Source: Dehalococcoidia bacterium (GTDB taxonomy: Bacteria; Chloroflexota; Dehalococcoidia; Dehalococcoidales; Fen-1064). Taken from it: a DNA stretch of 54,378 nucleotides. The notes under the pieces were generated by a model. It did not search any database and was not told the origin of the DNA. It was given only the letters and a program-made list of their open reading frames with translations. Positions 4,682 to 21,230 of this stretch are shown here, piece by piece (position 1 is the stretch's first letter; the number at the start of each line of letters is the position of its first letter). The position numbers and the translations under genes are program-made. The stretch is taken from contig JAUYDN010000102.1 of NCBI GenBank assembly GCA_030691775.1, forward strand, positions 1 to 54,378. The letters are read 5' to 3'.

Positions 4682-4978
4682 GTGGATATTGAGTTCTCAT
4701 CCAATCGCCTGTTCAATTCAAGCATGAGCATTTCAGATGCCACCCGACTTTTCGGTGCACAAATTGGCCGAAAGTACATCCAACGTCTGGCAGTTTTGAG
4801 AGCGACGGAAAAATTCGCTCATCTATACGGACACCGGGCGTTGCGGTTACACCCGTTGAAAGGTAACCGTGCCGGACAGTATTCGATAGCTCTTACCGGT
4901 AACTACCGGCTTATTATCGAAAAGAGCCAAGAAGACAGTATACGTATTATGGATGTGGAGGATTATCATGGTGACTAA
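4682..4978 (+). CDS. higB: HigB-type toxin (plasmid maintenance system killer, RelE/ParE superfamily), 98 aa
   Basis: GTG start. LRLHPLKGNRAGQYSIALTGNYRLII..DVEDYH is the typical HigB/killer-protein signature. It overlaps the antitoxin gene. Confidence 0.85.
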   Translation: MDIEFSSNRLFNSSMSISDATRLFGAQIGRKYIQRLAVLRATEKFAHLYGHRALRLHPLKGNRAGQYSIALTGNYRLIIEKSQEDSIRIMDVEDYHGD

Positions 4979-5255
4979 GACTTCTGCTTATCCCGATATC
5001 GCTATACCTCCCGGTGAATACTTGGCAGAGGAAATCGAGGCGAGAGGGATTTCTCAAAAGGAACTGGCAAGGCGTATGGGACGACCTTTGAATGCTATTA
5101 ATGAGATTATTAACGGGAAGAAGTCCATCACCGCCGAAACTGCCCTGCAACTTGAAGCAGTTATGCCACAGATACCAGCACGGTTCTGGCTGAATCTGGA
5201 GATTGATTACCAGCTTACCAGGGCATTGATTAGCAAGCGTGTCAAAGCTGCTTAA
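4968..5255 (+). CDS. higA: HigA-type antitoxin, XRE-family HTH, 95 aa
   Basis: The ATG at 4968 overlaps the higB stop (4976-4978). PPGEYLAEEIEARGISQKELARRMGRPLNAINEIINGKKSITAETALQLE..FWLNLE matches HigA antidote proteins. Confidence 0.85.
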   Translation: MVTKTSAYPDIAIPPGEYLAEEIEARGISQKELARRMGRPLNAINEIINGKKSITAETALQLEAVMPQIPARFWLNLEIDYQLTRALISKRVKAA

Positions 5256-6847: not shown

Positions 6848-6921
6848 ATTAGCTCTCCTTTCAATTCAGCAAGTCCCGCCACAAGACCGCTTGATACTCA
6901 GCCTCGGATTTTGCCTCAGCC

Positions 6922-7029
6922 CTTGCCCTGGCAGTGGTTACGGCAACAAACCTCAAGCTGCGTCTGTAGGCTCGTGCCTTCCCTTTCCTGGTTGTCTGTG
7001 CTTACCCGGCAATAGATAGCCGCTTTCAT
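6922..7029 (-). pseudogene. 5' remnant of a second, diverged serine recombinase gene (first 26 codons, then out-of-family sequence and a stop)
   Basis: Reverse strand: GGAGAC-N8-ATG AAA GCG GCT ATC TAT TGC CGG GTA AGC ACA GAC AAC CAG... encodes MKAAIYCRVSTDNQEREGTSLQTQLE. It is 25/26 identical to the intact recombinase, but about 12 codons differ synonymously. Confidence 0.6.
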
Positions 7030-7099
7030 TTATTTAGTCTCCTCACTCTTCAATTTCTGACTGGGTATAGCCTAGAAGATGTTTCTCTGTAGATGAAAT

Positions 7100-7405
7100 C
7101 TAGGCGGGTGGGTTAAATCTGCTTTTGCCTTGGTATTGCCAGAGATAAGCCTGTAGCACACTCTTGATGTAAAAGAGTCGAAAACCCACGGTGCATGGAC
7201 GTACTCCGTTGAGCACTTCTATAAGGAGGTCGGCATTGTAGTCGTCATAAAGCACGTACCCTCTACGGCTAACAGCCTCTTTTGCCACCTCAAGAATCCG
7301 TTGTGGACTGAGCCCGTAGTTGCTCGTCTCATTTTTCAAAAATGCCTCGACTAGTGCCCTAGCCTGTTGAGCCCAAACTGTGTCTTTTGATTTCGCATCT
7401 GCCAT
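7100..7405 (-). CDS. Hypothetical protein, 101 aa
   Basis: It is an intact ORF with AAGGAG upstream and its own promoter-like element. I recognised no family. Confidence 0.5.
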   Translation of the reverse strand: MADAKSKDTVWAQQARALVEAFLKNETSNYGLSPQRILEVAKEAVSRRGYVLYDDYNADLLIEVLNGVRPCTVGFRLFYIKSVLQAYLWQYQGKSRFNPPA

Positions 7406-7449
7406 TAGTATGTCGTCTCCTTATTCAGTATTTTAATGCTATGCATTGT

Positions 7450-7478
7450 ATCGTAAAGCATTGCATTGTAATTGTCAA
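7450..7478 (-). promoter_or_regulatory. Sigma70-like promoter with a 9-bp direct-repeat operator candidate
   Basis: Minus strand: TTGACA (7478-7473), a 17-nt spacer, then TACGAT (7455-7450). TGCATTGTA occurs twice (7442-7450 and 7462-7470), 20 bp apart, overlapping the -10 and the spacer. Confidence 0.45.
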
Positions 7479-7680
7479 GCTTTTTCAAATGCTTTGCCCT
7501 AAATAATTGACTGCTTATTTTTAGCTTCAGGTTTTAATCTCATACCCCTTCAGAGTAATAATTGCCCGGAAGTTTATTTGTTCCGTATCCTCTCACTTGT
7601 AATAGCCTCTGCTAAAATCGTTCCTTTATTTGTTTATCGCTTCCAAGCCTGCGACTTCAGGCGTATTCTTGACCGATGGT

Positions 7681-8250
7681 TTATTTAGTCTCAATGGCGT
7701 TCCTCAAGTCCGCCTCTGACGGCTGGTAATATTGCAGTGTGATTCCTAATGAACTGTGTCCCATGAGTTTCGATAGCACGTACGGATGTACGCCCTTTCC
7801 TGCCTTATCGTAGACAAAGCCGTGGCGGAAGCTGTGCGGATGTATCTTCTGCCAGTTCTCAATGCCGGCTTTTCGCGCCAGTTCGCGCACCTGATATCGG
7901 TATGCGTTCTCATGGCCGGGGAATAACAGCGCCGATGGTTTCAGGTCCGCCGACTGTACGTAGTCGTCGAGGGACTGGCCCAATTCCCGCGGGACCGGCA
8001 ATAGTTCCGGCTGGGCTCTTCGCCTTTTGCTTCTAGTGATGCTCAGTGAGTAGTCCAGTCCCACTCGGCGAACATCCCGCGCCGTGAGCCTTAAGACTTC
8101 CGATATCCGTAGCCCCGTGAACCAGAGCACCTTGATAAAGCATCGAATACGCGGCGTCTTGGCTTCCGTCCAGATTGCCATAGCCTCACGTTCATTGACG
8201 TGGGGATACTCTTTTATCTGTGTCCCTGGTAGAGCTGGTAAGTAGGACAT
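7681..8250 (-). CDS. Tyrosine recombinase (phage-integrase catalytic domain only), 189 aa
   Basis: It has TGLRISE (Arg), HPHSFRHGF (H-x-x-R) and LMGHSSLGITLQYY (His and the Tyr nucleophile). No N-terminal core-binding domain is present. Confidence 0.85.
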   Translation of the reverse strand: MSYLPALPGTQIKEYPHVNEREAMAIWTEAKTPRIRCFIKVLWFTGLRISEVLRLTARDVRRVGLDYSLSITRSKRRRAQPELLPVPRELGQSLDDYVQSADLKPSALLFPGHENAYRYQVRELARKAGIENWQKIHPHSFRHGFVYDKAGKGVHPYVLSKLMGHSSLGITLQYYQPSEADLRNAIETK

Positions 8251-9173
8251 TAAATTCTCCCTTGTATTTTGATTAGTTCGCCGTTGTTGTAAATAAAAAA
8301 TGGTATAATACCACCAATATCTATGAAACTTAGAAGATTATTATTCAAAATACCTATAGGTTTGATATTTCTCGGTCTGTTGTTCTTTCTGTTAATAGTA
8401 ATAGCCATCGTAATAGACCTGACCAGGGAAACTAACTCATTTTCAGCATGGGTTTTTAGTTTCGTGACTAATTGGAGTGGAGTCTTAAGTGCAGCAGCCG
8501 CTTTAATCATGGCGATAGCCGCATTCGCAGCCATTCGTGAAAACCGCCGTTCCAGGGCATTGGATAATATACATACTTGGGCACGGGAGACATTAAGGGT
8601 GCTCATGGCTTTGCCTAAAGAAGTAAACGGTTCAAAACAGGCATCTGAAATCATAGGAAAGATAATTATTGACACTACACCAATGGTTAAGGATGCGGTT
8701 AAGCTTGGGTTAGGAAACCAATTTGATTCGGTAAGTAAGGAATTAATTAGACTTAATGCAGCGCTCGAAGATGAATCTTTACCTATAATCGAATTAATGG
8801 AACCATATGGCTTACTAATAGCCCATCTCATGATTCTAAAGACAGTAGAATAAGAAATAAACTGTCTTTGTCCCTTATTGCTATTTTCTACAAATCCCGC
8901 CCGTTGCATAAGAGACGACAGGCGTGCTACGTCTGCTGCCAACGTTGGCTGAAGGTTTGTTTTTGGAGCGTTGAGAAGTAAACTACAAACCGTCATAGTC
9001 TCTTGTCCTTCCCGTTCCACCGTTGGAGCCAATCGACCTCCGGCCTGGGGAGGGACATAGTCGGCGGCTCCTACTTCCGGCCGTTGAATTGCGGACACTT
9101 GAGAAGTTTTGTTGCGTAAAGCGGTATTGTTCGCCCTTACCGTCAAGGCTGTCTCATTCTTACCGTCCGTCAT
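8250..9173 (-). CDS. Hypothetical protein, 307 aa (alternative reading of the same DNA)
   Basis: This is a 924-nt stop-free frame in AT-rich DNA with GGGGGA 5 nt upstream of the ATG. Its start overlaps the upstream gene by 14 nt and its stop overlaps the integrase ATG (TAATG). The C-terminal third is N/K/R-rich and could be an antisense shadow of the TM protein. Confidence 0.35.
   Translation of the reverse strand: MTDGKNETALTVRANNTALRNKTSQVSAIQRPEVGAADYVPPQAGGRLAPTVEREGQETMTVCSLLLNAPKTNLQPTLAADVARLSSLMQRAGFVENSNKGQRQFISYSTVFRIMRWAISKPYGSINSIIGKDSSSSAALSLINSLLTESNWFPNPSLTASLTIGVVSIIIFPMISDACFEPFTSLGKAMSTLNVSRAQVCILSNALERRFSRMAANAAIAMIKAAAALKTPLQLVTKLKTHAENELVSLVRSITMAITINRKNNRPRNIKPIGILNNNLLSFIDIGGIIPFFIYNNGELIKIQGRI
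8323..8853 (+). CDS. Hypothetical two-TM membrane protein, 176 aa (mutually exclusive or overlapping with 8250-9173 minus)
   Basis: Two clean hydrophobic helices (IPIGLIFLGLLFFLLIVIAIVI and WSGVLSAAAALIMAIAAFAAI) are followed by a basic RENRRSR stretch and a helical soluble tail. There is no clear RBS. Confidence 0.45.
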   Translation: MKLRRLLFKIPIGLIFLGLLFFLLIVIAIVIDLTRETNSFSAWVFSFVTNWSGVLSAAAALIMAIAAFAAIRENRRSRALDNIHTWARETLRVLMALPKEVNGSKQASEIIGKIIIDTTPMVKDAVKLGLGNQFDSVSKELIRLNAALEDESLPIIELMEPYGLLIAHLMILKTVE

Positions 9174-9429
9174 TCAATCCCCCGTTCTGCAACAAAGTGG
9201 TATCTTTTGTTGCTAATCCGTTGATAACGCCCGCCACTGTCAAACCATTAGCTTTCAGTATCTTATAGACTAGCCCTCGGCTACACCCTAGCTTTTCCGC
9301 TGCCAGTGGTACACTACGGCAAAGCCGCAAGGCGTCACAAATATCAGTGACAACGATGTTTGTCGCCGCCCGACCAATTCCTAGTGTCGCCGCCACTTTG
9401 CCACAATGCGGACACGTTATTACCTTCAC
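9160..9429 (-). CDS. Small DNA-binding protein with an N-terminal CxxC and a Hin/resolvase-type HTH, 89 aa
   Basis: It has a GTG start with AAGAGG upstream, then CPHCG and PLAAEKLGCSRGLVYKILKANGL (helix-turn-helix). It could be an excision or recombination directionality factor. Confidence 0.55.
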   Translation of the reverse strand: MKVITCPHCGKVAATLGIGRAATNIVVTDICDALRLCRSVPLAAEKLGCSRGLVYKILKANGLTVAGVINGLATKDTTLLQNGGLNDGR

Positions 9430-9596
9430 TGGTAACCTCTTGCTGTTATCCGGCGCTCTTCATATTTGACGTTCAGTTTGTTTTTTATTCGTGTACTTCT
9501 TCTACAGGTTGGCCGCCGGAGCCAGTACGGGGGACGAAGCCCGAACCAGCTTTTAACGCCGTTGACGAGACGGCAACCGGCGGCACACGACCTGAA

Positions 9597-11384
9597 TTAG
9601 TCATTATTTTCACGTCTCCATAGGTTGTCGGAAATTATCTTGCCGTGCCTCCCACCAGTGTAATAATTGCAGTACAACCCCACTGGATTCATCTCTCCCC
9701 AATCTTTAGACTTGACTATCTTACATTTACCCATCATGCTAGTTTTACCTTGACTTACCGTGTCCAACGAGAGGTACAGATTAGATAGCTTCGCGCTGTA
9801 TACACCGCCATAACCCATGTCTTTATCTTTCTGTTTCTGCAAAGCGAATATGACTAGCCCCTTGCCCAGTTTTCGTTGTAGCTTCTTAATTACCGCGCCA
9901 ATCATGTAAACCTGCTGATTTTCTCCCTCTCCATCCAAATCAAGGTAGTCAATTACGTTTATACCGTCCGGGTCTATAACATCGTAAAATTCAAAGTCTG
10001 TCTGCTTTATAGCCTTGAACTGTTTACCTAACTCATTTACTAAGTTGGGGTAATCTTCCAGTCTCAATAACATCCTGTCCTCTGACATTTCGTTAAACCA
10101 GTAGTAGACAGGCATATCTTGAGTACCTACGTTGAGCTCACATACTTCGAGTAAAAACGCTGTCTTTCCGGCTGATGTATACCCCGCGACTCCTATCACA
10201 CTTCCAGGGGGGACATTGACGTATTGATTGAGTCCCAGGGGGAACTTGATTGATAAATTAGACTGTTTTCTGTAATCTGCCAGTGTTAGGAATTTATAAT
10301 CTTTGTTGACCCACTCTAATATGTCGTGCCTTCCCTGCCAGGGTCTTATCTGTGTTTCATCCAAACGCCTCTTTACTATCTGCCGGAAGGTGTCACTGGT
10401 TGGTTGAAGTCCAATTGAAAGGGCAATGTCACGGCGTGACATTTTCCCGGCATCTTTTAGAACACTGTCAAAGCTAGCGGAGTAGTTTTGCCGCTTTTTG
10501 TTGTCCGTACTTTGAAAGGAATCTGTCACGGTTTTGTCACGGTTTTGAAAGGTTTTAGAATCGTTTAGTGTATCTTCAGTGGCATTAAATATAATAGAAT
10601 TATTATATCCAGTGTTTTTACGCTCTTGGTACTTTGAATAGAAACGGCTAATCTTCTCTAAAATTACACTTTCTTCTAATGGAGGCTGATTTTTCTTGTT
10701 CCAGTCCAGCATGATATGCTCTGTTACATCAGCCGGTAGATTGTTGCGGAAGTAGCCAATTAGACGTTTGGCGCTGTCGTCGCGCTCCCCTTGTTTAACA
10801 CCCTGTAATAGAGAGCTAACCCACCCAGGTTGATTGCCAGAGGTTTTATTTTCCTCTGGTTTATGATTAGTATATATCCCTATATCTGCCAAACTGTCTA
10901 TCGTTCTAATTGGCACATCGGGATTGATTATTTCGTATGGTGTGCCGGACGGATGTATTGAAGGCCATGCAATGACATAACCGCCTTCAGCTTTAAGGTC
11001 AATTTTGGGGAATTTCTGAGACTTGATGGTTTGGGGAAGTCTTACGTATACGTGTATACCCCTGCTAGTGCGGACTAATCGTGTGAATGTAAACAAGTCT
11101 AACTTGAGACTGTCTTTTGTATAATCAAGGTACCGATACCATGTTTCGTGGTCGTCAAAGTCAAGCACTACCAAGTTACCCGACACGGCACCACACACAA
11201 TAGCAATGCTTGCGGTCCCGTTAGATTTCCAATGTGCAATCTCGTCTTCAGTCGGCTGCCGTTCTTGATAAACTTTCCAGGGAGCGGCAGCCTCTTTACT
11301 TCTCGCTGGAATAGGAAAGAATGAAAGCCCTTCGCTATGGTATTGGTCTATAGCTCGTTGTATAGATTCGGTCGTCATCGTCAT
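9597..11384 (-). CDS. Bifunctional primase-polymerase (Prim-Pol) fused to a P-loop helicase/RepA-like domain, 595 aa
   Basis: The N-terminus GLSFFPIPARSKEAAAPWKVYQ..IAIVCGAVSGNLVVLDFDD is the Prim-Pol signature. The C-terminus has Walker A GYTSAGKT and a DnaB/RecA-like core. Confidence 0.85.
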   Translation of the reverse strand: MTMTTESIQRAIDQYHSEGLSFFPIPARSKEAAAPWKVYQERQPTEDEIAHWKSNGTASIAIVCGAVSGNLVVLDFDDHETWYRYLDYTKDSLKLDLFTFTRLVRTSRGIHVYVRLPQTIKSQKFPKIDLKAEGGYVIAWPSIHPSGTPYEIINPDVPIRTIDSLADIGIYTNHKPEENKTSGNQPGWVSSLLQGVKQGERDDSAKRLIGYFRNNLPADVTEHIMLDWNKKNQPPLEESVILEKISRFYSKYQERKNTGYNNSIIFNATEDTLNDSKTFQNRDKTVTDSFQSTDNKKRQNYSASFDSVLKDAGKMSRRDIALSIGLQPTSDTFRQIVKRRLDETQIRPWQGRHDILEWVNKDYKFLTLADYRKQSNLSIKFPLGLNQYVNVPPGSVIGVAGYTSAGKTAFLLEVCELNVGTQDMPVYYWFNEMSEDRMLLRLEDYPNLVNELGKQFKAIKQTDFEFYDVIDPDGINVIDYLDLDGEGENQQVYMIGAVIKKLQRKLGKGLVIFALQKQKDKDMGYGGVYSAKLSNLYLSLDTVSQGKTSMMGKCKIVKSKDWGEMNPVGLYCNYYTGGRHGKIISDNLWRRENND

Positions 11385-11603
11385 ACCTGCATACCCTCGT
11401 CCATTTTGAAGCCGTTACGGTGGTCATCTCTGCTCCTCTTGCGCTCTCTGCAATAGCCGTGCCCAGGCTCGCCGCCACTGTTCCCGCATCGCCGGGGACA
11501 CTTTCCCCGGTTCAATTCGGACGGTGACCATAGGCTCCGGCTTCTGTGACTTGGTATCCGATTTAGGCACTTTTGGTCTCCGGTATGTCCTCGGTCTCAG
11601 GCA

Positions 11604-11780
11604 TTATTTCGGTTGACTCCCACCTTTTCGTTTCGGGCGCACTCTCAAGATGCCGTTGGCTATTACTTCCACTTTATCCCCAGGTCTAAGGCTGTAATAC
11701 TCAGCCCACGATTTCGGTATGGTTATCACTAAGCCACCATCGCCCATACGAATTAGACTTCGCTCTGTGATACTTGGCAT
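11604..11780 (-). CDS. AbrB/MazE/SpoVT-type DNA-binding protein, 58 aa (below the ORF-track length cutoff)
   Basis: The reverse strand encodes MPSITERSLIRMGDGGLVITIPKSWAEYYSLRPGDKVEVIANGILRVRPKRKGGSQPK. The looped-hinge-helix motif (ITIPK..GD.V) is typical. It heads the replication/recombination gene string. Confidence 0.7.
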   Translation of the reverse strand: MPSITERSLIRMGDGGLVITIPKSWAEYYSLRPGDKVEVIANGILRVRPKRKGGSQPK

Positions 11781-11865
11781 TGCACTTATCCTCCCTATAA
11801 GATATTCTAGAAGCCATGCGAAGTTTATGGTGCTGAAAAACTGCTGAATTTTTGATGATTTTAAG

Positions 11866-13188
11866 GTGAAACAGGTGGAGCAAAAGATAGTTAATCCAAA
11901 AATCCGCGACTGGGAAGTGAAAGTGAAGGTATGGCAACGTCAAGCTATCGGTGACAAAAAGAGTGCCATACGTAGGTATTTTGAACTTCACGCTGGCAAG
12001 GATGGTTATCCGGAGCTTACCCCTGATAGAGCTACCATAGCTAAAATATGTGATGAATTGCGCACGTTATCACCAGAGTTAGTCCTGAAACTGCCATCAG
12101 AAGTCCAAGCATACGCAAAAAAACTCAACCCACACCTAAAAGAAAGTCTGGGACTACAACCCAGAAATAGTCGTAAAACCTTAACTGTTGAAGAAATCGT
12201 AATTGGAGAAGAGCGGAAACAAGCAATTCTCAAACACCGAGATGCCCTTCGCGACGTGGCAAGTCAGTGGAAATCTCAAATATGGCTTCCGCCTCCTTGG
12301 CGATGGGATATGGCAAACCTCAGGTATGTGTTCTATGTAGATACCAAGAATCAAGGAGCGGGAAATAAATATAAATTGCCAGAAGAATTGGTTAGAGGAG
12401 AGGAGTCTAGAGGTCACGTAAGGGCCTTTATAGAAAGTCAACGTTCTGTAACCTGGGATGTACTAGAGGACGAGTCAATTGTGGTAAAAGCCCCGGTCGA
12501 AGACGAGCCTCTTTTTGACCACTTAAAAGTACACACTGAGGGGGCGCCAGCCTGGAGGCTGTTCACCGAATGGAATAAGAAGGGTGGCACCTACCTACGG
12601 CTTTGTTCGTCGCTGCTCGCTAGAATTGAACAGGATACAAAAAGTTCGATGGGGGCAAAATCTGAGCTTTCTTGGTGGAGTATATATCACGATGCTTTTT
12701 GCACTGAAGATACGCTGCTCTGTTGCGAGAGATGCGGAACCGAGAACCCTTACGCCTTCACTTGTCCTATTTGCGGTGGCAAGTTCTCACAGGAGGAAGA
12801 AATTACACGGCACATAGGGAATAATCATCCCAAAGCTGACCCCAAAGCGTGGCGTTTGCCGTCCTGCCAGAATTGTTTTATGTCTTTGGGCTGGCTGAGA
12901 CCTCGTGTCAAAGGATATGAGCGTGTCATCAACAATCCGCAATCTGTGGCGATTGCCATTGACCGCGGGACTATTATTGAGGAATCGGTAGAAATCGAGC
13001 GTTACGAAAGTTACATCCGAGGACACGCAGGCTTGAGAGACAAATATCTAGGTTGCGACTTGGTCAAGACTATATTGCAAAGGGAAAAGGAAGTTAGGCA
13101 AGTCCAGGAACGGCTTATCGGTGAACTTACATCCCTATCAGAGCAAAAGGTTTTTTATGGTAAATACCCGGCTTGTCCAGATTACTAA
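11866..13188 (+). CDS. Hypothetical protein with a classical C2H2 zinc finger, 440 aa
   Basis: CERCG followed by FTCPICGGKFSQEEEITRHIGNNH (C-x2-C-x12-H-x5-H). I recognised no other family. The start may be GTG 11866 or GTG 11875 (AAGGTG upstream). It is divergent from the AbrB gene and convergent with the methyltransferase. Confidence 0.6.
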   Translation: MKQVEQKIVNPKIRDWEVKVKVWQRQAIGDKKSAIRRYFELHAGKDGYPELTPDRATIAKICDELRTLSPELVLKLPSEVQAYAKKLNPHLKESLGLQPRNSRKTLTVEEIVIGEERKQAILKHRDALRDVASQWKSQIWLPPPWRWDMANLRYVFYVDTKNQGAGNKYKLPEELVRGEESRGHVRAFIESQRSVTWDVLEDESIVVKAPVEDEPLFDHLKVHTEGAPAWRLFTEWNKKGGTYLRLCSSLLARIEQDTKSSMGAKSELSWWSIYHDAFCTEDTLLCCERCGTENPYAFTCPICGGKFSQEEEITRHIGNNHPKADPKAWRLPSCQNCFMSLGWLRPRVKGYERVINNPQSVAIAIDRGTIIEESVEIERYESYIRGHAGLRDKYLGCDLVKTILQREKEVRQVQERLIGELTSLSEQKVFYGKYPACPDY

Positions 13189-13280
13189 GTCAAGGTGACA
13201 CTAAATCTGGCAACTTTTGAGAGGAATTTGGCTTTTTTACGTGGGAAGCGTCACAAACCGCTACATTGTTACCTGCTGGG

Positions 13281-16200
13281 CTAGCTTCTTCCCTCCACCA
13301 CCGCTATCTCCTCCGGTGTGAGTTCATAAAGCTGGTAAACCAACTGGTCTATTTGTGCTTCCAGTTCTTTAACTTGAGCTTGCTTGGCTGGGTTGGAAAG
13401 GTAGTCTTCATCTTTAGTAATGGTGAGGATTTGGTCAACCAATTGTATGATCGGTTTTTGGTTGATTTTCCGGAAATCTGGACATGGGACTTTGCCTATA
13501 TACTGTTCATCGTATCTTGTGCTTCGTATGGCGTTACTATACACGAACTTATACAATAGCCACGCAAAGAGTTTTGAATTGTTAATGGCTAAAAGGAATT
13601 TGATGTCAACAGAATTCTCTCTAACAAAAGTGCAAGAAATGGTCTCAAAAACTAACCTGTTCTCCAAATCAAGAGCAGCCTGCAAGAAGAAATGTGGATA
13701 AGGATTCTGAACGTGAGCTGGCGCAAGCTGATTGAGGATTTTTGGTTTTTGCTCGTATTGGTATTCATTTCGATTAAATTTCCTGAGGTCTATGAAATCC
13801 GTAGCCTTGTCTAAGAAGTACGGCGAAAGCTGAGCACCTCTATGAATTGGTGTAGTCCCTAGTTTTTTGTTAGCTTGACTCTGCCAATTCAAACCTCGTT
13901 CTATGGAGACATAATCTACCCACCTTTTGCCAAGTCTGCCAATGATATTCTTTATGATTTTCATTTCGTCGACAGTCTGCCCTGTCAAGAGAACATTACT
14001 TTCCGCAAAAACTTGCTTTGATACTTCAGTTAGCTCTCTTACTTCGTACCCGTCATATACTCCATTAATATAAGATAAACACCCGTGTCCTACGACTTTG
14101 ATAAAAATGACTTGCTCCAGCTTCACTTCTTCAAATGCTTTCCCTGTATCGATGAGCTTCTGCAATCCCTGAACAACAACACTGGCACATTTATTCCAAC
14201 CCATGGAATAGCAAAGGGATTTCGGCACTATGAATGTGTGTACTCCTCCTGTGCGCAATAGTTCCATTGCTCGGTAAATGAAATATATGGCGGAGTTCTT
14301 TACCTGCGACTTTAGCTTGATATATCGACTATCTAAGAACGTCCTCTCAATTTCACTCAGTTCCGCGCCGTATGGTGGATTTGCAATCACCACATCAAAG
14401 CCATTCGGCTCGTGAAAAACCTCAGAAAAGTAAATCTCAAAGTCAAAGGTTTTCTTGTTATCGGTTAACTGCATAATTAGCTGGTCAATTTGCTGTTTAT
14501 ATTCCTGCTTTTTCTTGGCGTTAGTTTCTTCAAAATGTAACGGCTTCAATCTTTCAAGCTCAGCAAACAATGGCCAGTTCTCAATCCTGCGCTCTACTCC
14601 CAACAAGGAATTCCCGCAAACAATCTTGTAGTCCAGGTTGGGCAAAGGCTGAATCTGCTTGATATCGTCTTCGTCCACCACCAGTGAAAGCCATAGTCTG
14701 AGCTTGGCAATCTCCACCGCTCCGGGGTCAATATCTACACCATACAGGCAGTTCTGGATAGCATGCCGTTTAAAGTGGTAATTTGTTCTCCCCGTTTTAT
14801 CCGGCATGTAAGTGGTGAGCGTGTTTCTTGCGCGGACGATTTCCGTCATTAAGCCTACTGGGAAAGCTCCGGAACCAATGGCAGGGTCGCACACTCTGAT
14901 ATTAGCTAATGCGTCATCAATCATAGCGGCATTAAAGCGGATACTCGGTGGCAACTTATAGGAATAATCACGGGTCTCTTTGCCCTGACTTTCCACATGA
15001 GTATCGTGCTCAATCGTAAGCTCGCCCATCCGCACCAGGGCTTCAATGTCTTCACGTGGCACGCGGTTAGTATGACCTTCGGTCTTCAAGGCTTGCTGTT
15101 GCACGGCGGGGGCGCCAAATAGTTTTAAATTAACCGGCTTTTCTTTGGCCAATGGCACCTCGCCGGTGTTTACCGCTGTATCCAGATAATTGATAAGACT
15201 CTCCTGGCACATATAATGGACAATTTCACGCGGGGTGTAATAAGTGCCTTTGGACTTGCGGTCTTTGACTTCCAGCAGGTTTTCAAATACCTTGCCCAGC
15301 ATCTCCGGGTCAACGGCGACCTCTTTATCCAGCGGCTCATCCTCTTTGACGGTAAAGTTGTAGCGGTCAAAAACATCCAGGATGCCGGTGCCGGTATCTC
15401 CTTCTTTTGTTTTTTTGGTATTGGAGAAGAGTTCATTGGGCAAAAGCATATCGGTATGGTCCCAACTATAACCATTGATCGGGTCAAAGAGACCGCCGTT
15501 CAGGAAAGGAATTTTACAGTTGAAACGCGGATAATAAGCTGGGTCAATGGTGCCACGTTCCTGTTTAGCAAGCGCGTCATAAAACAGGTATTCCAGATAA
15601 CCGTTGAAAAAATTGGCTTTACTATTGCTGGCTCTATCAAACAAAGTGCGTAAAAAACGTCTATCTCCATCACCCCATTTTCTATCTTCAGGCACTCCTA
15701 GCCAGCCTTTTTTCTGTAGAAAGTAGAGGAAGACAATCTGCCCTAATAGCTTCTTGGCAAAGTTGATGCTATCCAGTTGTTTATCAATAAACTCCTTGTG
15801 AACGGACTCATTATCGGCGGCAAGAGTATCGAGAGATTCCTTAACACTAATATAAAGTTGCTTATATTTTTCGAAGAACTCTCTGGTGACAACCTCAACA
15901 CTGAACGCCTTTTCAAGCTCAGCAAGAGATGGCGTTTTAACATCATTCTCAAGGATATCAATGAGTTGCCGTTGGGCGGTATGGCTGCTCTCGTTTTCCC
16001 CTACCAGAAACGAATAGCGGCGCGCTGGTGTCAATACGGTCTCGATTTTTGTTTTCCCAGTAAGTGTGCTGGCAAGTTCATAATCCATTTTCACTAGGGA
16101 AAAACGCCAGTCATTATCGTCCGGCGAGACAAAAGCAACAAGCGCGGCCTCCTTATTATCTCTGCCCTTTAAGTACCGGGCGATGTAGTTACGCTGCATG

Positions 16201-16466
16201 ACGCGGGCGCGTTCCAGTGAGCCTTCTTTTTTTAGGCGCACGACAAGTATATCTATCTTGTTATGGTTTTCATCCTCATATTTACCGATACGCTTTAGGC
16301 TCTGGATGCCTTCATCGTAAGCCTGGGCGACAGTATTGCCGCGATAATGCAGAACATCAGGGTCAAGGTGTTTGACCAAATTCCGGCTGAAATTGGTGAA
16401 GTTGGCTTCGTTAAATTGATTTTCGAAGGTATCCCGGATAAGCCTAGTAGCCGCCTGTCTTTCCAT
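13281..16466 (-). CDS. N6-adenine DNA methyltransferase, Eco57I/PglX-like (gamma class) with a large N-terminal region and a C-terminal TRD-like region, 1061 aa
   Basis: It has motif I VCDPAIGSGAFPVG, motif IV VVIANPPYG and a C-terminal coiled tail (AKQAQVKELEAQIDQLVYQLYELTPEEI). The ATG lies 1 nt after the helicase stop (TAAGATG), with GGAGAG inside the helicase 3' end. Confidence 0.9.
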   Translation of the reverse strand: MERQAATRLIRDTFENQFNEANFTNFSRNLVKHLDPDVLHYRGNTVAQAYDEGIQSLKRIGKYEDENHNKIDILVVRLKKEGSLERARVMQRNYIARYLKGRDNKEAALVAFVSPDDNDWRFSLVKMDYELASTLTGKTKIETVLTPARRYSFLVGENESSHTAQRQLIDILENDVKTPSLAELEKAFSVEVVTREFFEKYKQLYISVKESLDTLAADNESVHKEFIDKQLDSINFAKKLLGQIVFLYFLQKKGWLGVPEDRKWGDGDRRFLRTLFDRASNSKANFFNGYLEYLFYDALAKQERGTIDPAYYPRFNCKIPFLNGGLFDPINGYSWDHTDMLLPNELFSNTKKTKEGDTGTGILDVFDRYNFTVKEDEPLDKEVAVDPEMLGKVFENLLEVKDRKSKGTYYTPREIVHYMCQESLINYLDTAVNTGEVPLAKEKPVNLKLFGAPAVQQQALKTEGHTNRVPREDIEALVRMGELTIEHDTHVESQGKETRDYSYKLPPSIRFNAAMIDDALANIRVCDPAIGSGAFPVGLMTEIVRARNTLTTYMPDKTGRTNYHFKRHAIQNCLYGVDIDPGAVEIAKLRLWLSLVVDEDDIKQIQPLPNLDYKIVCGNSLLGVERRIENWPLFAELERLKPLHFEETNAKKKQEYKQQIDQLIMQLTDNKKTFDFEIYFSEVFHEPNGFDVVIANPPYGAELSEIERTFLDSRYIKLKSQVKNSAIYFIYRAMELLRTGGVHTFIVPKSLCYSMGWNKCASVVVQGLQKLIDTGKAFEEVKLEQVIFIKVVGHGCLSYINGVYDGYEVRELTEVSKQVFAESNVLLTGQTVDEMKIIKNIIGRLGKRWVDYVSIERGLNWQSQANKKLGTTPIHRGAQLSPYFLDKATDFIDLRKFNRNEYQYEQKPKILNQLAPAHVQNPYPHFFLQAALDLENRLVFETISCTFVRENSVDIKFLLAINNSKLFAWLLYKFVYSNAIRSTRYDEQYIGKVPCPDFRKINQKPIIQLVDQILTITKDEDYLSNPAKQAQVKELEAQIDQLVYQLYELTPEEIAVVEGRS

Positions 16467-16467
16467 C

Positions 16468-19400
16468 TTACTCTCCTACAAAATATTCAGAGAGGATTAC
16501 TTCCCTTGGGCCTGAAATTTGTGCCGAGCTTTCAGCCGGAGTTTCTTTGAAAAACTCGTCGGCGATGTTCGTTCTTAGAATACCTAAAATCTTAAGCGGG
16601 TTCTTTTCTTTACTTAGCTCCTTAACAAGGGTTTTGGTTGTCTGTTTTGGGAGTCCGCCTTCTTCAATGAGTTTGATTAAATTGATAATATAGAGTTCAT
16701 CGTCTTCTGTATAACCTTTGAATTGTCTAACGTCTTTTGATTTAAGAATCTTGAGCACAAAAGTGGCACTATCCCGGCCACCTTTTAGTTTTACTTCAGG
16801 CATTTCTTCTCTTGTGGCTACCTGAAATTCCTTTTTGTTTTTCCCTAACAGGTCATAATAGTCCTTTCCAATTAGCTCACGCTTGGTTTCTCGCTCAGTT
16901 TCAAGTAATTTAGCTGCCGCAAAGAAGTCTTGTTCTTTGGACGATTCATTGTTGGCTAGGTAGAATTTTTGCAGTTTGCCCTTACGAAAATAAGTTAACA
17001 GATTATCTTTGTTCTCCGGTTGTTTTCTGGCGGTACGGGCTTTCTTCGGCAAACGTTTTATCTTTTCGAATAAGTCAGGCTGTTCATCCCGGATACTCCT
17101 GATAATTTGGAGATACTTGAGTTCACTTTCTTCAGCTTCATCCTCCCCGGTTATCGTTTTCTTTGAAGTCAAACGAGTGAACAAATCATGGGATTTGATT
17201 TCTTCGCCCTCGGTCAGGAGTCTGCCGTCGGCTCCCAGCATTTCAATAAATGCCTCTATTTTATATTCTGCGGCCTCTTTTAGCTTTATTTGGTCATTGG
17301 ACTGAACGGTTGGGAAAAGGTTAAAGGTATAGATTTTATCAAATTTCGTATTAACACGATTTATACGGCCAGCTCTTTGCATCATTCGAGTTGGGTTCCA
17401 GGGAATATCATAGTTCATGACTACGTTAGACTGATGAAGGTTTACACCCTCCGATAGGACTTCAGTGGAAATTAAGATGCGGTAATCATCCTTTTTAACC
17501 CTCGCATTAGCATCGAAGTTTGCAATCACTTCGGCTCTGGCGGCAGCACCGGAGGCCCCTGTGTATAAGAACACTTTATTTGGGAATACTTTGTCCAGAT
17601 GACTATGCAGATATTCAGCAGTTTCTTTGGATTCAGTAAACACAATGATTTTATTCTTCTTCAGAATCTCTTTATGTGATAGTACGTTAACAAACTCAAG
17701 TAGTTTGGGGTCTCGTTTTATTGCCTCCCAGAGCTTGGCAACTTCCCTTAATACAACTAAATCATTTTGCAGGTCTTTCTTGAAATCGTCACTGAAATCT
17801 GATGCCTTATACTCTTTAGCCTTGTCTTCGTCAATGAGACGCTGAATCGCTTCATCATCATCATTTTCAAGTAATTCGAAGAGCTTATTGGCATAACCTT
17901 TGCTTACATAAACCTTTCCATTGTCCAGTTCAGCCAGAAACTGCTCATATGTTCTAGTGAATCTATTAATAGAATTTCTGAAGGCGTAAAAACTACTCTC
18001 AAGTCTCTTTACAAGTAATATCTTCATGAACTTTCTCATGTTCTTTTGAGCCAGTTCTTCCGGCTGCAAAACAGTCCGCGCTTTGAAATACTCCGGGAGC
18101 ATTGGCGTGTACCGCGCGTATTTAAATCTCTTGGTTACTAACTCGATTGTTTTATTAAAAATACGGTCTTCTTCCTCATTTAATTGATAGAAGATTGCTT
18201 CGGGGTCGGCCACATCAGGAAACTTGATTTTACCCTCTGCTAAATCTTGATTATAGTATTTAACAATCTCCGAGCGGGTTCTTCTTACCATCAAGTATTT
18301 CAGCACTCGTTCTCTAATTTCCTTAGCATTGCTTCTAACCTGTTTGATGTATTGCTCATAATCTTTCTGCCTGTCCAGGCCATTAAGTTTCTTGTCAAGG
18401 TTGTCAAAGAACTGTTCCAAATTGGGCTGGTTAGGAATAGTGCTCCTCCTTCCTTTTTGGAACAGCTTTATTTGACTGAGAATATCACCGGGTGTGTTAT
18501 TCAAAGGGGTTGCTGAAACGAGGATAATGCGTTTGCCACGACATATTTGAGCGAGCTTTTCATAAGTCTGAGTCGTTTCTGTCCTGAATCGATGTGCTTC
18601 ATCAATAAATATATTTTTATATTTATCTGTTCCTTTTGCGATTAGATGGTCAAGCTTACCCAGTGATTCACAATCGTACGGAACCCTGAAGTCAGAGAGT
18701 ACATTAGGCCAGGAACCAGGATTATCCCTATCAAGAAGAACCGGAGGGGCAATAACAAGATTTCTCCCATCCAGCTGATTAGCCAGCATGGCTGCAATGT
18801 ATGTCTTGCCTAAACCAACAACATCAGCGAGGAAGACGCCACCATATTCTTCAAGTTTACTCTTAGCATCCGTAACGGCATCGTTCTGGTATTTTAGGTC
18901 TAGAAAGTTCTCCGGGACGTACTCTTTTTCAATTGGATTCTGGTCAAGATTTATCTTCTCTTTGAAATACTCATATAGGAATTTTAAGTAAAGTTCATAA
19001 GGCGTAATGTTATCGTTGAGCCATGTTCTGGGGATGGTCTCAATGTATTTATCGCTGACATCTACCGCATCTTTCCAAAGTTCATTAAACTTGGACATGG
19101 CAAAATCATAATCAGCCCTATCTTTAAGTTCAACATTAAACTCAAGATTATCAATCAGGCCAGATTCGGTGAAATTGCTGGAACCGGTTATAACTCTGCC
19201 AGTATCCTTATCCCCCTCTTTAAAAGTCATAATATACAATTTGGCGTGAATATGGGCAGAAGGATATACTCTGATTTCCAGTTTGTCGCTTTTCAGCCAT
19301 TCAATAAACTTGGTTACACCTTCTTCTACGCTGTCACTATCATCCGAGTCGTCCATCTCGTCCACGACCCGGCCTGCAAATTCTTGTTTAGCCTCCGCGT

Positions 19401-19656
19401 GAGAAACTTCAAATACTCCCGGAAGTGGGTTTTGGGCTTTTTGTATCAGGTCAAGAGTCTCGATACCGGTCTTTAATCCGATGAGAATTCGTATTTTCTC
19501 TGAGCTTTCCAGAGATTTGTAAAGCGCATAGAAACCGCTTGTATAGAAATAACCGACCAAAACATCAAAAAAACGGGTGTCTTTTATCAGCACCCGAAAT
19601 CTTTCACGGAGATTTTTCTCATCCTCATTGGTGATAAATTTAGTATCGCTACTCAT
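16468..19656 (-). CDS. PLD-family (single HKD) nuclease domain fused to an SNF2-family helicase, 1062 aa
   Basis: The N-terminal HAKLYIM..GSSNFTESG is an HKD/PLD motif. The SNF2 motifs are VVGLGKTY (I), IFIDEAHRFR (II), LVSATPLNN (III) and MQRAGRINR (VI). Confidence 0.9.
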   Translation of the reverse strand: MSSDTKFITNEDEKNLRERFRVLIKDTRFFDVLVGYFYTSGFYALYKSLESSEKIRILIGLKTGIETLDLIQKAQNPLPGVFEVSHAEAKQEFAGRVVDEMDDSDDSDSVEEGVTKFIEWLKSDKLEIRVYPSAHIHAKLYIMTFKEGDKDTGRVITGSSNFTESGLIDNLEFNVELKDRADYDFAMSKFNELWKDAVDVSDKYIETIPRTWLNDNITPYELYLKFLYEYFKEKINLDQNPIEKEYVPENFLDLKYQNDAVTDAKSKLEEYGGVFLADVVGLGKTYIAAMLANQLDGRNLVIAPPVLLDRDNPGSWPNVLSDFRVPYDCESLGKLDHLIAKGTDKYKNIFIDEAHRFRTETTQTYEKLAQICRGKRIILVSATPLNNTPGDILSQIKLFQKGRRSTIPNQPNLEQFFDNLDKKLNGLDRQKDYEQYIKQVRSNAKEIRERVLKYLMVRRTRSEIVKYYNQDLAEGKIKFPDVADPEAIFYQLNEEEDRIFNKTIELVTKRFKYARYTPMLPEYFKARTVLQPEELAQKNMRKFMKILLVKRLESSFYAFRNSINRFTRTYEQFLAELDNGKVYVSKGYANKLFELLENDDDEAIQRLIDEDKAKEYKASDFSDDFKKDLQNDLVVLREVAKLWEAIKRDPKLLEFVNVLSHKEILKKNKIIVFTESKETAEYLHSHLDKVFPNKVFLYTGASGAAARAEVIANFDANARVKKDDYRILISTEVLSEGVNLHQSNVVMNYDIPWNPTRMMQRAGRINRVNTKFDKIYTFNLFPTVQSNDQIKLKEAAEYKIEAFIEMLGADGRLLTEGEEIKSHDLFTRLTSKKTITGEDEAEESELKYLQIIRSIRDEQPDLFEKIKRLPKKARTARKQPENKDNLLTYFRKGKLQKFYLANNESSKEQDFFAAAKLLETERETKRELIGKDYYDLLGKNKKEFQVATREEMPEVKLKGGRDSATFVLKILKSKDVRQFKGYTEDDELYIINLIKLIEEGGLPKQTTKTLVKELSKEKNPLKILGILRTNIADEFFKETPAESSAQISGPREVILSEYFVGE

Positions 19657-19688
19657 TGCTGTGCCCTCTCCAAATCCGCTGGCTGGTC

Positions 19689-19943
19689 TTACTCCTGCCC
19701 AAAAGCTTTGAGGAATGTTTTAGGAACCTTAGGCACCTTGCTATCTACCCACGCTTGAAGACAGGTAAGGGAACAAAAGTCGTAGTGGTCAACGGCTCCC
19801 ATTCCTTTCCAATGGGAAACTGATAACCAACCGCTCAGAACGGAGCAACGGGCATCTTCAGGCGGAGCACATCCATCAGAGCACTCAGTGTACTCCGCTT
19901 TTTTTCCACATCCCTGGCAAATAGCATAACTCCGTTTCCCCAT
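19689..19943 (-). CDS. Small Cys-rich protein with an FCS/TRASH-like zinc motif, 84 aa
   Basis: The preferred start is ATG 19943, with GGAGGA 4 nt upstream (the ORF track starts further up at 20030). It reads MGKRSYAICQGCGKK...DFCSLTCLQAW and lies 32 nt upstream of the helicase gene. Confidence 0.55.
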   Translation of the reverse strand: MGKRSYAICQGCGKKAEYTECSDGCAPPEDARCSVLSGWLSVSHWKGMGAVDHYDFCSLTCLQAWVDSKVPKVPKTFLKAFGQE

Positions 19944-20058
19944 TGATTCCTCCAAATCCGCTGGTTGGGCCATCCTTCTCGTGACAGCGATTATGTCTCC
20001 AGCGATGCTTCTTCCAGATGTCTTATGCAAACTTTGACACTATTCTACCACTTAGTGT

Positions 20059-20199
20059 TTACCGTTGGAATAGCAAATTGAAGAATTGACAGCCCTCGGC
20101 GATAACGTCTCGGAGCTGGTTCTGCAACCACAGGTCTTCGGTCTCATCCTCTTCATCATCATCCGGCTGGCAGACACTATCAGTCGGAAATTGCCACAT
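20059..20199 (-). CDS. Possible tiny acidic protein, 46 aa (below the ORF-track cutoff)
   Basis: The reverse strand encodes MWQFPTDSVCQPDDDEEDETEDLWLQNQLRDVIAEGCQFFNLLFQR. Its ATG starts 2 nt after the stop of the upstream RHH gene (TAACCATG). There is no independent RBS. Confidence 0.3.
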   Translation of the reverse strand: MWQFPTDSVCQPDDDEEDETEDLWLQNQLRDVIAEGCQFFNLLFQR

Positions 20200-20201
20200 G
20201 G

Positions 20202-20969
20202 TTACTTATCAGGCTCAGATAAATCCACCCAGTACCCATCACCTAGAAATTCGTCCTTATGATGCGGCCTCGTCAAACCCAAGCTACTCTTATATATCCG
20301 GAAAATGTGCTCTTTACCATCAGTAAGTCCAAGCCTCATCGTCTCACCGGTAGGCTGCCGCCTGGCTACATTAGCCAAATACTCAACCTTAGACTGCACA
20401 GTGCCGAGTACCCCCTCAAGGTTGGCTACTTTCGTAACCAGTGCGGGTATAGGCTTCAGGTCATCATGTCCATGTGTGGTTAGCTTTGTTTTAACCTCAT
20501 TTTGACCTTCGCTAAGACCTTCAATCATCTTTTGAATTTTTTCAATCTCAGACCGGTGAACCTTGGCATTAGTGTCAACCGTCTTGGTTAAATTGAGCAA
20601 GCCCTTCAATTGACTCTCATGCAAATCATTCACCATTCGAACTATGGAACTAGTATCGGTATTACGCAGACCATCAAGTTTATCTAAACGCTCCCCTAGA
20701 GTTTTAATGCCCTTTTGAAGCGCAGCAATGTCCGAATAATTTTCCTTAATATTGGCCTCGTGACCCTGTAGTTGCTCATACAAGTCAGATAAAGTTACGT
20801 CGTCACCATCCTCATCTTTCAGAGTAGCAGCAGACTTTGACGGGTAAAGTGCATCGTCAACCAGCTTTCTTAGAAACTCGGCAGTAGTCTGGCCACGCTC
20901 GTCACTCACCCTTTCAAGCTCTTCAGCTAAATCATCCGGCACTCGAAAACCTACTACCCTACTTCCCAT
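20202..20969 (-). CDS. Ribbon-helix-helix (CopG/Arc-like) N-terminal domain plus long coiled coil, 255 aa
   Basis: MGSRVVGFRVPDDLAEELERVSDERGQTTAEFLRKLVDDAL is a typical RHH. The remainder is heptad-rich (LQKGIKTLGERLDKLD...), followed by a small C-terminal domain. Confidence 0.65.
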   Translation of the reverse strand: MGSRVVGFRVPDDLAEELERVSDERGQTTAEFLRKLVDDALYPSKSAATLKDEDGDDVTLSDLYEQLQGHEANIKENYSDIAALQKGIKTLGERLDKLDGLRNTDTSSIVRMVNDLHESQLKGLLNLTKTVDTNAKVHRSEIEKIQKMIEGLSEGQNEVKTKLTTHGHDDLKPIPALVTKVANLEGVLGTVQSKVEYLANVARRQPTGETMRLGLTDGKEHIFRIYKSSLGLTRPHHKDEFLGDGYWVDLSEPDK

Positions 20970-20977
20970 ATTAGCCC

Positions 20978-21064
20978 CCTGTTTTCACCTGTTAATTTCT
21001 GTAAACACCTTGATTGTTAACAACCTGTTTTCTATATGTTAACAAAAACCGTAAACACTGTCAA
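20978..21064 (-). promoter_or_regulatory. Promoter/operator region of the RHH gene with two about 35-nt imperfect direct repeat units
   Basis: The units are CCTGTTTT..GTTAA..GTAAACAC at 20978-21008 and 21024-21058. GTAAACAC occurs at 21001-21008 and 21051-21058, and GTTAACAA at 21016-21023 and 21038-21045. On the minus strand, TTGACA (21064-21059), 17 nt, then TAACAT (21041-21036). Confidence 0.45.
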
Positions 21065-21230
21065 ATTTCAACATCAAGAACATAGATATAGAGCTTGATA
21101 AAGTTTGCCCAAGAATATGCAAAAACTGAGTAGAGAACTGTTTGTGCTAATCATGTTTATTCTTTTTTCCTGCCACCAACGTCAATATTGCCCTAAATAT
21201 TGGCATCAGTCATTGACAATCGCATACATT

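Follow-up and report, generated by a model that had tools for sequence, protein, structure and literature searches.

What system, if any, is encoded by five tightly packed minus-strand open reading frames (ORFs) on a metagenome-assembled contig of a Dehalococcoidia bacterium? We analysed the whole 54,378-nt stretch, called the window here, and all coordinates refer to it. In the order of transcription, the five ORFs encode a ribbon-helix-helix (RHH)/coiled-coil protein, a tiny acidic product, a small zinc-ribbon protein, a protein that joins a phospholipase D (PLD) nuclease domain with a single HKD motif to a SNF2-type motor (hereafter the helicase), and a gamma-class N6-adenine methyltransferase. 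A first-pass annotation, made from the sequence alone, had proposed a new multi-gene defence operon. We consider it probable that the region is a mosaic and not a five-gene system, i.e. that an integrative element of a serine-recombinase/PrimPol type carries a two-gene cargo resembling a restriction-modification (R-M) system.

The ORF list and the translations placed all five ORFs where the first-pass annotation had put them (Table 1), and the coordinates bore out the tight packing it described, with 2 nt between the RHH stop and the acidic-ORF ATG (TAAccATG), 32 nt between the zinc-protein stop and the helicase ATG, and 1 nt between the helicase stop and the methyltransferase ATG. A gap of 115 nt between the acidic and the zinc ORFs had gone unmentioned. 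The zinc ORF reaches further in the mechanical ORF list, to a TTG at 20030.

Relatives of the helicase are abundant, with at least 8000 in the database, the best 120 of which are about 1060 aa long and 66-75% identical to it. The locus scan took one genome per species and gave at least 560 helicase loci, 80 of which were retrieved for neighbourhood analysis (our loci L001-L080). Helicase loci span many phyla, including the candidate phyla radiation (CPR), Nitrospirota, Omnitrophota, Bacteroidales, Thermodesulfobacteriota, Dehalococcoidia and one Methanoperedens archaeon. Of the 80 loci, 73 have a methyltransferase homologue downstream of the helicase and on the same strand, and in five of the seven exceptions the contig stops within ~600 nt of the helicase. 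Among 57 complete pairs, 32 have overlapping genes or a gap of at most 10 nt. The helicase and methyltransferase aa 1-700 vary together in their pairwise identities (Mantel r = 0.57; 0 of 500 permutations as high), and the plasmid homologues in Parabacteroides and Thermus (~31% identity) also adjoin a large DNA methyltransferase gene. Besides the pair, no family was common to more than 11 of the 80 loci. The helicase and the methyltransferase form one conserved, co-inherited unit.

At other loci, further genes stand between the members of the pair, i.e. AlbA_2/HATPase_c_4 (~445 aa, ~10 loci), NYN (~160 aa, 5 loci) and Bro-N (~275 aa, 3-4 loci) genes, all assigned by Pfam. The insert-bearing loci are L021, L027, L038, L048, L055, L059 and L065 (between the pair); L001, L005, L006 and L071; L052 and L070; and L024, L066 and L071. 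In three loci a 750-aa ATPase, PrrC/RloC-like by eye, follows the methyltransferase, and a ~60-aa HTH_17 protein is encoded before the helicase in about six loci and in Dehalococcoides mccartyi. In the complete genome of the latter (AP024514, our locus L177, 9748-22722) the gene that precedes the pair encodes 60 aa, and a second, solitary Eco57I/MmeI-type methyltransferase of 952 aa lies ~3.5 kb downstream on the opposite strand. AlbA_2/HATPase, NYN, Bro-N and PrrC/RloC-like genes are of the kinds also inserted into classical Type I R-M operons, and we counted such hitch-hikers, between or beside the pair, in favour of an R-M-like behaviour.

The small genes had been presented as conserved accessory partners, and the claim of novelty rested mainly on them and on the architecture. 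Homologues of the zinc, the acidic and the RHH protein were found at 0 of the 80 helicase loci. Conversely, the helicase and the methyltransferase were found at 0 of 12 RHH loci (L081-L092) and at 0 of 82 zinc-family loci (L093-L174), which had none of the remaining genes of the island either, the RHH gene and PrimPol included. The small genes are not conserved partners of the pair, and with this the claim of novelty falls.

The RHH/coiled-coil protein belongs to a small family with 31 homologues, and 12 loci were examined for context. It carries an RHH domain at aa 6-41 (RHH_5, 26.4 bits with a cut-off of 26; RHH_1, 23.4 bits with a cut-off of 20.5; matches of this protein, of the helicase and of the methyltransferase were all judged against the Pfam cut-offs). 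It does not co-occur with the pair as a system-specific regulator would. Wherever its context is informative, it lies at the margin of a small integrative element that has a large serine recombinase and a replication gene of the PrimPol or DnaB type. The relatives L083-L085 have unrelated genes between the RHH gene and PrimPol; in L086 and L087 a complete type I R-M system lies just upstream of the RHH gene, with divergent transcription; and several relatives have a convergent gene of 360-420 aa at the place of ORF 11866-13188 of the window. Judged by these contexts, the RHH/coiled-coil gene belongs to the backbone of the integrative element and stands beside unrelated cargo elsewhere. The layout of its promoter, including the TGTTTAC and GTTAACA motifs, is kept in L081, L086 and L090, which points to autoregulation of an element gene and not to control of an R-M system. 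Most likely, the RHH/coiled-coil protein autoregulates its own conserved promoter as a component of the element. Two exact inverted copies of the 13-mer AGTGTTTACSGTT, at 20054-20066 (+) and 21047-21059 (-), flank the RHH gene and the acidic ORF, the latter copy overlapping the spacer of the RHH promoter. They could represent an additional RHH operator, or else the promoter region could have been duplicated in part and inverted.

At the acidic ORF, four independent relatives are homologous to the window as DNA beyond the RHH stop and into this ORF, where the homology ends at 20135-20160. The aligned element relatives have no start codon at the corresponding position, the ATG being unique to the window; for this reason the acidic ORF is probably accidental, not a gene and not translated. 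The ~40-65 nt directly 3' of the RHH gene (~20135-20200; GGCAATTTCC..TGATAGTGTCTGCC.GCCGGATGATGA) are conserved as DNA in L081, L083, L088 and L092, where they are noncoding.

The zinc protein belongs to a genuine family of ~84 aa with the pattern CxxC...W...FCSxxCL..W..P.IP..F and 47 representative clusters, whose loci were scanned with a 6-sequence alignment. The genes usually found around it are of the cold-shock-domain, Lrp-like, QueF-like and GYD kinds; most members, from sediment and groundwater metagenomes, lie within a few tens of nt of a cold-shock-domain gene. In the window, a 19-nt direct repeat brackets the zinc ORF (Table 1), and through it both this ORF and the helicase are preceded by an identical CCAGCGGATTTGGAG ribosome-binding region. 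We also considered the repeat as a translation-initiation region conserved in the helicase family, which its absence upstream of the other helicase homologues examined rules out. A repeat that brackets the zinc ORF and is absent at the other homologues suggests a local insertion or duplication event. The zinc-ribbon gene is most likely an unrelated small gene that landed beside the module.

We then considered the two large proteins. All the PLD, SNF2 and methyltransferase motifs quoted in the first-pass annotation are readable in the translations, and the domains are backed by Pfam. In the helicase (HAKLYIM...GSSNFT, GLGKT, DEAH, SATPLNN, QRAGRINR) the matches to PLDc_2 (42.6 bits, cut-off 27), SNF2-rel_dom (35.5 bits) and Helicase_C (73.1 bits) all exceed the cut-offs. 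In an alignment of 48 homologues, residues H137, K139 and G158-S-S-N161 of the PLD domain are invariant, and the GLGKT, DEAH, SATPLNN and QRAGRINR motifs are invariant or nearly so. With HxK...GSxN inside the PLDc_2 domain, the protein is a member of the PLD/HKD nucleases, with a predicted activity; with a SNF2-related N-lobe, a Helicase_C domain and motifs I, II, III and VI, it is also a member of the SWI2/SNF2 ATPases. For the helicase as a whole, AlphaFold2 gave a poor model (pLDDT 60.9, below 50 in the PLD domain, and with a poorly modelled C-terminal region), and usable Foldseek matches were obtained for the motor only. The top matches of the motor were mostly SWI2/SNF2 motors (among them Chd1, CSB, RapA and the defence protein ZorD), together with some RIG-I-like helicases. 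For aa 800-1062 there was no match in Pfam and none in the PDB by sequence or profile search.

In the methyltransferase, DPAIGSGAF and then NPPYG are readable and the catalytic motifs are invariant across the homologues aligned. Eco57I (105.4 bits) and N6_Mtase (43.1 bits) exceed the Pfam cut-offs, and TaqI_C (21.7 bits) is under its cut-off of 26.5. The PADLOC model PDLC03596 (REase_MTase_IIG) matches aa 1-750 with E = 1e-249 and 829.8 bits (model positions 1-775 of 1148). The protein agrees with Type IIG both in this curated-model match and in the combination of gamma-class motifs and a C-terminal recognition domain in one polypeptide, and a fused endonuclease domain is at most putative. PDB profile matches of the half with the methyltransferase and recognition domains were CamA, M.BseCI, PglX/BrxX and TaqI.

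The C-terminus, which had been described as resembling a target-recognition domain, is hypervariable. Precisely, column identity is 0.09-0.46 in the recognition domain versus 0.54-0.83 upstream of it (barring a variable stretch at aa ~450-500), and mean pairwise identity is 0.25 in the C-terminal ~350 aa versus 0.61 in aa 1-700. The divergence of the recognition domain is uncoupled from that of the helicase (r = 0.14), and a hypervariable C-terminus uncoupled in this way is the signature of a specificity domain diversifying under selection.

The N-terminal alpha/beta domain holds the conserved positions E58 (K here), D65, D72, K80, R88, R92, D119, R121, E159 and H162. No PD-(D/E)XK or MmeI_N signature was found in it by Pfam, PDB sequence profile or Foldseek, and aa 1-380 had no match in PDB sequence and profile searches. 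The AlphaFold2 model of aa 1-400 (pLDDT 70.8) gave a best Foldseek match in the PDB of only E = 0.039, and shows a beta-hairpin/helix domain bearing the conserved acidic and basic residues.

On this basis the pair is probably an ATP-dependent R-M-like cargo module. The steps of the mechanism proposed here are all inferred from what is known of the families. The 1061-aa protein would recognise a short, probably asymmetric DNA site by its hypervariable C-terminal domain and would methylate one adenine (N6) on one strand, by analogy with MmeI-type enzymes, PglX and MtsC, marking the host DNA as self. The 1062-aa protein would be the restriction subunit, with a SNF2 motor that translocates on double-stranded DNA with ATP. 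Since one PLD active site takes two HKD motifs and the PLD-SNF2 protein has one, this protein should act as a dimer that builds one PLD site, as in MtsD and SauUSI, and this dimer would cut DNA carrying unmethylated sites. The N-terminal domain of the methyltransferase might dock the motor-nuclease or might itself be a divergent nuclease. Of the working model of the first-pass annotation, the methylation-based R-M-like unit with a PLD-SNF2 effector is retained, and the RHH-mediated control is not, RHH homologues being found at none of the helicase loci. More tentatively, the pair could be a distinct, so far unclassified, minimal two-subunit class of R-M systems dependent on nucleoside triphosphates (NTPs), with more than 560 species-level loci, in which the SNF2-PLD fusion serves as Res and the N-terminal domain is a coupling module with no homologue among solved structures and not a nuclease; we regard this as possible, at somewhat less than even chances.

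Compared with known systems, the methyltransferase is most easily placed among the Type IIG/IIL enzymes (Cj0031-like, Eco57I, MmeI), with which it shares an N-terminal domain, a helical linker, a gamma-class N6-adenine methyltransferase (FxGxG, NPPY) and one variable recognition domain, whose hypervariability is common to those families. It differs from them in the obligatory PLD-SNF2 gene directly upstream and in an N-terminal domain with no detectable PD-(D/E)XK signature. Of the two large proteins, the methyltransferase alone has a clean assignment to an existing family model, i.e. Type IIG. Together with the lack of conservation of the small genes, this largely refutes the first-pass proposal on its own terms. 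In Type III (Mod/Res), Type ISP and CglI/NgoAVII systems a specificity and methylation part is likewise combined with an NTP-driven motor-nuclease, and hemimethylation of an asymmetric site is likely. In Type III and Type ISP, however, the nuclease is PD-(D/E)XK, whereas here it is PLD with a SNF2-type motor. We rejected membership of Type III R-M.

The first-pass annotation had warned that such pairs might already be filed as R-M-like, and so they are, both by the PADLOC Type IIG model cited above and by Milman et al. (NAR 2023, PMC9881135), whose Table 3 lists Cj0031-homologous Type II R-M genes with or without an adjacent phospholipase D and SNF helicase gene. Compared by description only, those pairs have the same domain content and pairing, with the PLD-SNF gene immediately upstream; they were reported (PMC9881135), however, solely as the genomic context of programmed inversions. 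Cj0031 restricts phage alone, and no helicase partner has been reported for it. The family to which the pair belongs is widespread and had already been remarked on, and it is experimentally uncharacterised.

MANTIS (Gao_RL, BREX-related type 2; MtsA-D; bioRxiv 10.64898/2026.09.23.753747; Rakesh & Krishnan, NAR 2026, PMC12839542) is similar in that an N6-adenine methyltransferase marks self and an HKD/PLD protein with an SF2 motor (MtsD) is the effector; MtsC/MtsD, like SauUSI, restrict by a PLD-motor protein through a dimeric single PLD site. The MANTIS methyltransferase, however, works only with MtsA and MtsB, and the DUF499 ATPase (MtsA) and DUF3780 (MtsB) are absent from the island of the window (Pfam, PADLOC) and from the conserved neighbours of the 80 loci. 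NF042964, the equivalog of MtsD-type PLD-helicases, reached 155.7 bits where the cut-off is 1100, with the alignment confined to the helicase C-lobe (aa 538-790). SauUSI is also a PLD-motor restriction enzyme, but it acts on modified DNA and lacks a partner methyltransferase. By analogy, the module may work like a stripped-down MANTIS or like an enzyme of Type III/ISP style whose Res subunit is a PLD-SNF2 protein.

The idea of a DISARM system collapsed into two polypeptides proved to be a loose analogy. Class 1 DISARM has a SNF2 motor (DrmD), a PLD protein (DrmC) and an adenine methylase (DrmMI) in its parts list, with partial profile matches here, whereas in the helicase PLD and SNF2 are fused and the DISARM-defining DrmA and DrmB (DUF1998) are absent. 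In the island ORFs there was no DrmB and no full DrmA, the sole DrmA match being a partial C-lobe within the PLD-SNF2 protein, and neither family was among the shared neighbours at the 80 loci; the equivalogs NF038317 (DrmD, 135.3 bits against 610) and NF038319 (DrmC, 18.6 against 133) were far below their cut-offs. As the first-pass annotation had noted, PglZ, BrxC and BrxL have no matches in the island ORFs, and neither have HsdS and a Res-type PD-(D/E)XK (Pfam, PADLOC, NCBIfam); NF033452 (PglX) scored 56.8 bits against a cut-off of 500. With partner genes absent and equivalog scores far below the cut-offs, we rejected membership of DISARM, BREX and MANTIS. We also rejected the PADLOC entry 'C3a139 HKD+Snf2' as a defined system, as it merely groups genes that occur in the vicinity of type III CRISPR loci (Shah et al. 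2018).

Three other explanations of the locus were weighed against an R-M-like cargo module on an integrative element. Five ORFs on the same strand, with small gaps and no terminator predicted between them, and with an operator-like 13-mer repeated just upstream of the zinc ORF, could be the operon of a DISARM-like defence system that has the RHH, acidic and zinc proteins as dedicated accessory components or regulators, and some MANTIS operons do include an Arc/CopG repressor, MtsR. Against this stand the helicase loci, none of the 80 with a homologue of the small proteins, the RHH (12 loci) and zinc (82 loci) relatives that occur without the pair, the missing start codon of the acidic ORF in relatives, and the absence of DrmA and DrmB, which together make this reading very improbable. 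To much the same degree we doubt a BREX-, DISARM- or MANTIS-type system that would block phage replication without a simple cut or would have extra ATPase or scaffold partners elsewhere. The partial PADLOC/NCBIfam matches to DrmD, DrmMI, PglX, BrxHII, HmaA and a phospholipase D anti-phage equivalog would agree with it, as would the dependence of the MANTIS methyltransferase on MtsA and MtsB, but the equivalog scores are far under their cut-offs (DrmD 135/610, PglX 57/500, NF042964 156/1100), the island has no DUF499, DUF3780, DrmA/B, PglZ or BrxC, and beyond the pair no family is common to more than 11 of the 80 loci. The remaining explanation, which we consider unlikely, takes the methyltransferase as a Type IIG enzyme that acts autonomously through a nuclease at its N-terminus (cf. 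Cj0031), the PLD-SNF2 protein being an auxiliary or back-up effector that enhances degradation, or a separate restriction activity. The PADLOC model (E = 1e-249) takes in the N-terminal domain, conserved acidic and basic residues are present at the nuclease position of Type IIG enzymes, and Cj0031 restricts phage alone, its homologues being listed with or without a PLD-SNF neighbour (Milman et al., PMC9881135). On the other hand, this domain has no PD-(D/E)XK or MmeI_N match (Pfam, PDB profile, Foldseek), the helicase is essentially always present and co-varying, which is unexpected for an optional helper, and the copy in the window has a K at the otherwise conserved E58.

Some observations nevertheless weigh against the R-M-like cargo module that we prefer. 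Between the RHH gene and the helicase no terminator-like site was predicted and no promoter passed the scan, and read-through from the RHH promoter, hence an incidental RHH control of the pair, may occur. The 13-mer at 20054-20066 is a copy of a promoter motif ~110 nt upstream of the zinc ORF. Residue 58 of the methyltransferase (window 16293-16295) is K in the window copy versus E in 47 of 56 homologues and, if the N-terminal domain is catalytic, this copy might be impaired. The methyltransferase might also be an autonomous Type IIG enzyme, with a different role for the PLD-SNF2 protein. In addition, the literature searched contained no experimental study, methylome or cleavage data for exactly this pair, and a search of the Dehalococcoides methylome literature returned nothing.

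The split of the supposed operon into a mobile-element backbone, a stray small gene and a cargo is what removes the earlier claim of novelty. Standard tools label just the methyltransferase (Type IIG) and miss its obligatory motor-nuclease partner. The biochemistry of the pair would reveal a minimal self/non-self discrimination that dispenses with the extra ATPases of MANTIS, BREX and DISARM. Moreover, the locus illustrates a family of small serine-recombinase/PrimPol elements swapping defence cargo at a fixed site.

The island has a GC content of 0.40-0.49 versus 0.51-0.56 in the nearest flanks, with 0.505 in its first kb, at the recombinase end, and by Pfam it also encodes a large serine recombinase, a tyrosine-recombinase fragment and a PrimPol/DnaB-like protein. 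Identity to the counterparts in L083-L085 is 66% for PrimPol, 87% for the small ORF 9160-9429 and 71% for the serine recombinase. No att-like direct or inverted repeats of at least 11 nt were found between the two ends of the island. The two-gene cargo occupies the intergenic space between the RHH/coiled-coil gene of the element and the convergent gene 11866-13188. The coordinates of all these features are collected in Table 1.

Table 1. Features of the locus, with positions in the 54,378-nt window
Feature	Position	Strand	Size, evidence or remark
Integrative element, ~16 kb, low GC (serine recombinase, tyrosine-recombinase fragment, PrimPol, cargo, RHH gene)	5339-21100	.	GC, Pfam and likeness to L083-L085
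Methyltransferase gene (gamma-class N6-adenine methyltransferase, Type IIG architecture, recognition domain)	13281-16466	-	1061 aa
Hypervariable target-recognition domain, aa ~713-1061	13284-14330	-	Column identity, sub-threshold TaqI_C
Methyltransferase catalytic domain, aa ~381-712	14331-15326	-	DPAIGSGAF, NPPY
Conserved N-terminal alpha/beta domain of the methyltransferase, aa 1-175	15942-16466	-	Position of the nuclease in Type IIG enzymes
PLD-SNF2 helicase gene (PLD(HKD)-SNF2 nuclease-motor protein)	16468-19656	-	1062 aa, putative restriction subunit
Conserved C-terminal region of the helicase, aa ~801-1062	16471-17256	-	Many invariant columns (48 homologues)
SNF2-type ATPase motor, aa ~255-800	17257-18894	-	Pfam, motifs, Foldseek
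Single-HKD PLD nuclease domain, aa 30-194	19075-19569	-	PLDc_2 E = 6.5e-11; RE_NgoFVII E = 3.4e-5
19-nt direct repeat around the zinc ORF (18/19 identical, 282 nt apart)	19668-19686, 19950-19968	.	Repeat scan
Zinc-ribbon ORF	19689-19943 (from ATG)	-	84 aa
Acidic ORF	20059-20199	-	46 aa
RHH/coiled-coil gene	20202-20969	-	255 aa
RHH-gene promoter, sigma-70-type, TTGACA-17-TAACAT	20995-21064	-	TGTTTAC and TGTTAACA operator-like motifs upstream

As regards the other genes of the element and its borders, ORF 11866-13188 (+), which is convergent to the cargo and encodes 440 aa, had no Pfam, PADLOC or NCBIfam match and shares 31% identity over 89 aa with its convergent counterpart in L090/L091. A 58-aa MazE-like antitoxin (PF04014) at 11604-11780 (-) adjoins it, and L090 has one too. 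Just outside the serine-recombinase end, at 4682-5255 (+), the gene of a HigB-like toxin (PF05015, E = 4.6e-6) overlaps an HTH_3 antitoxin-like gene, and the two are probably a HigBA toxin-antitoxin pair. Finally, at 7681-8250 and 8250-9173 (-), a tyrosine-recombinase catalytic fragment of 189 aa comes directly after an ORF of 307 aa without matches; aa 56-134 in this stretch are 73% identical to a region overlapping a short called ORF in L081/L082, and the stretch 7681-9173 may be a decayed or split integrase.

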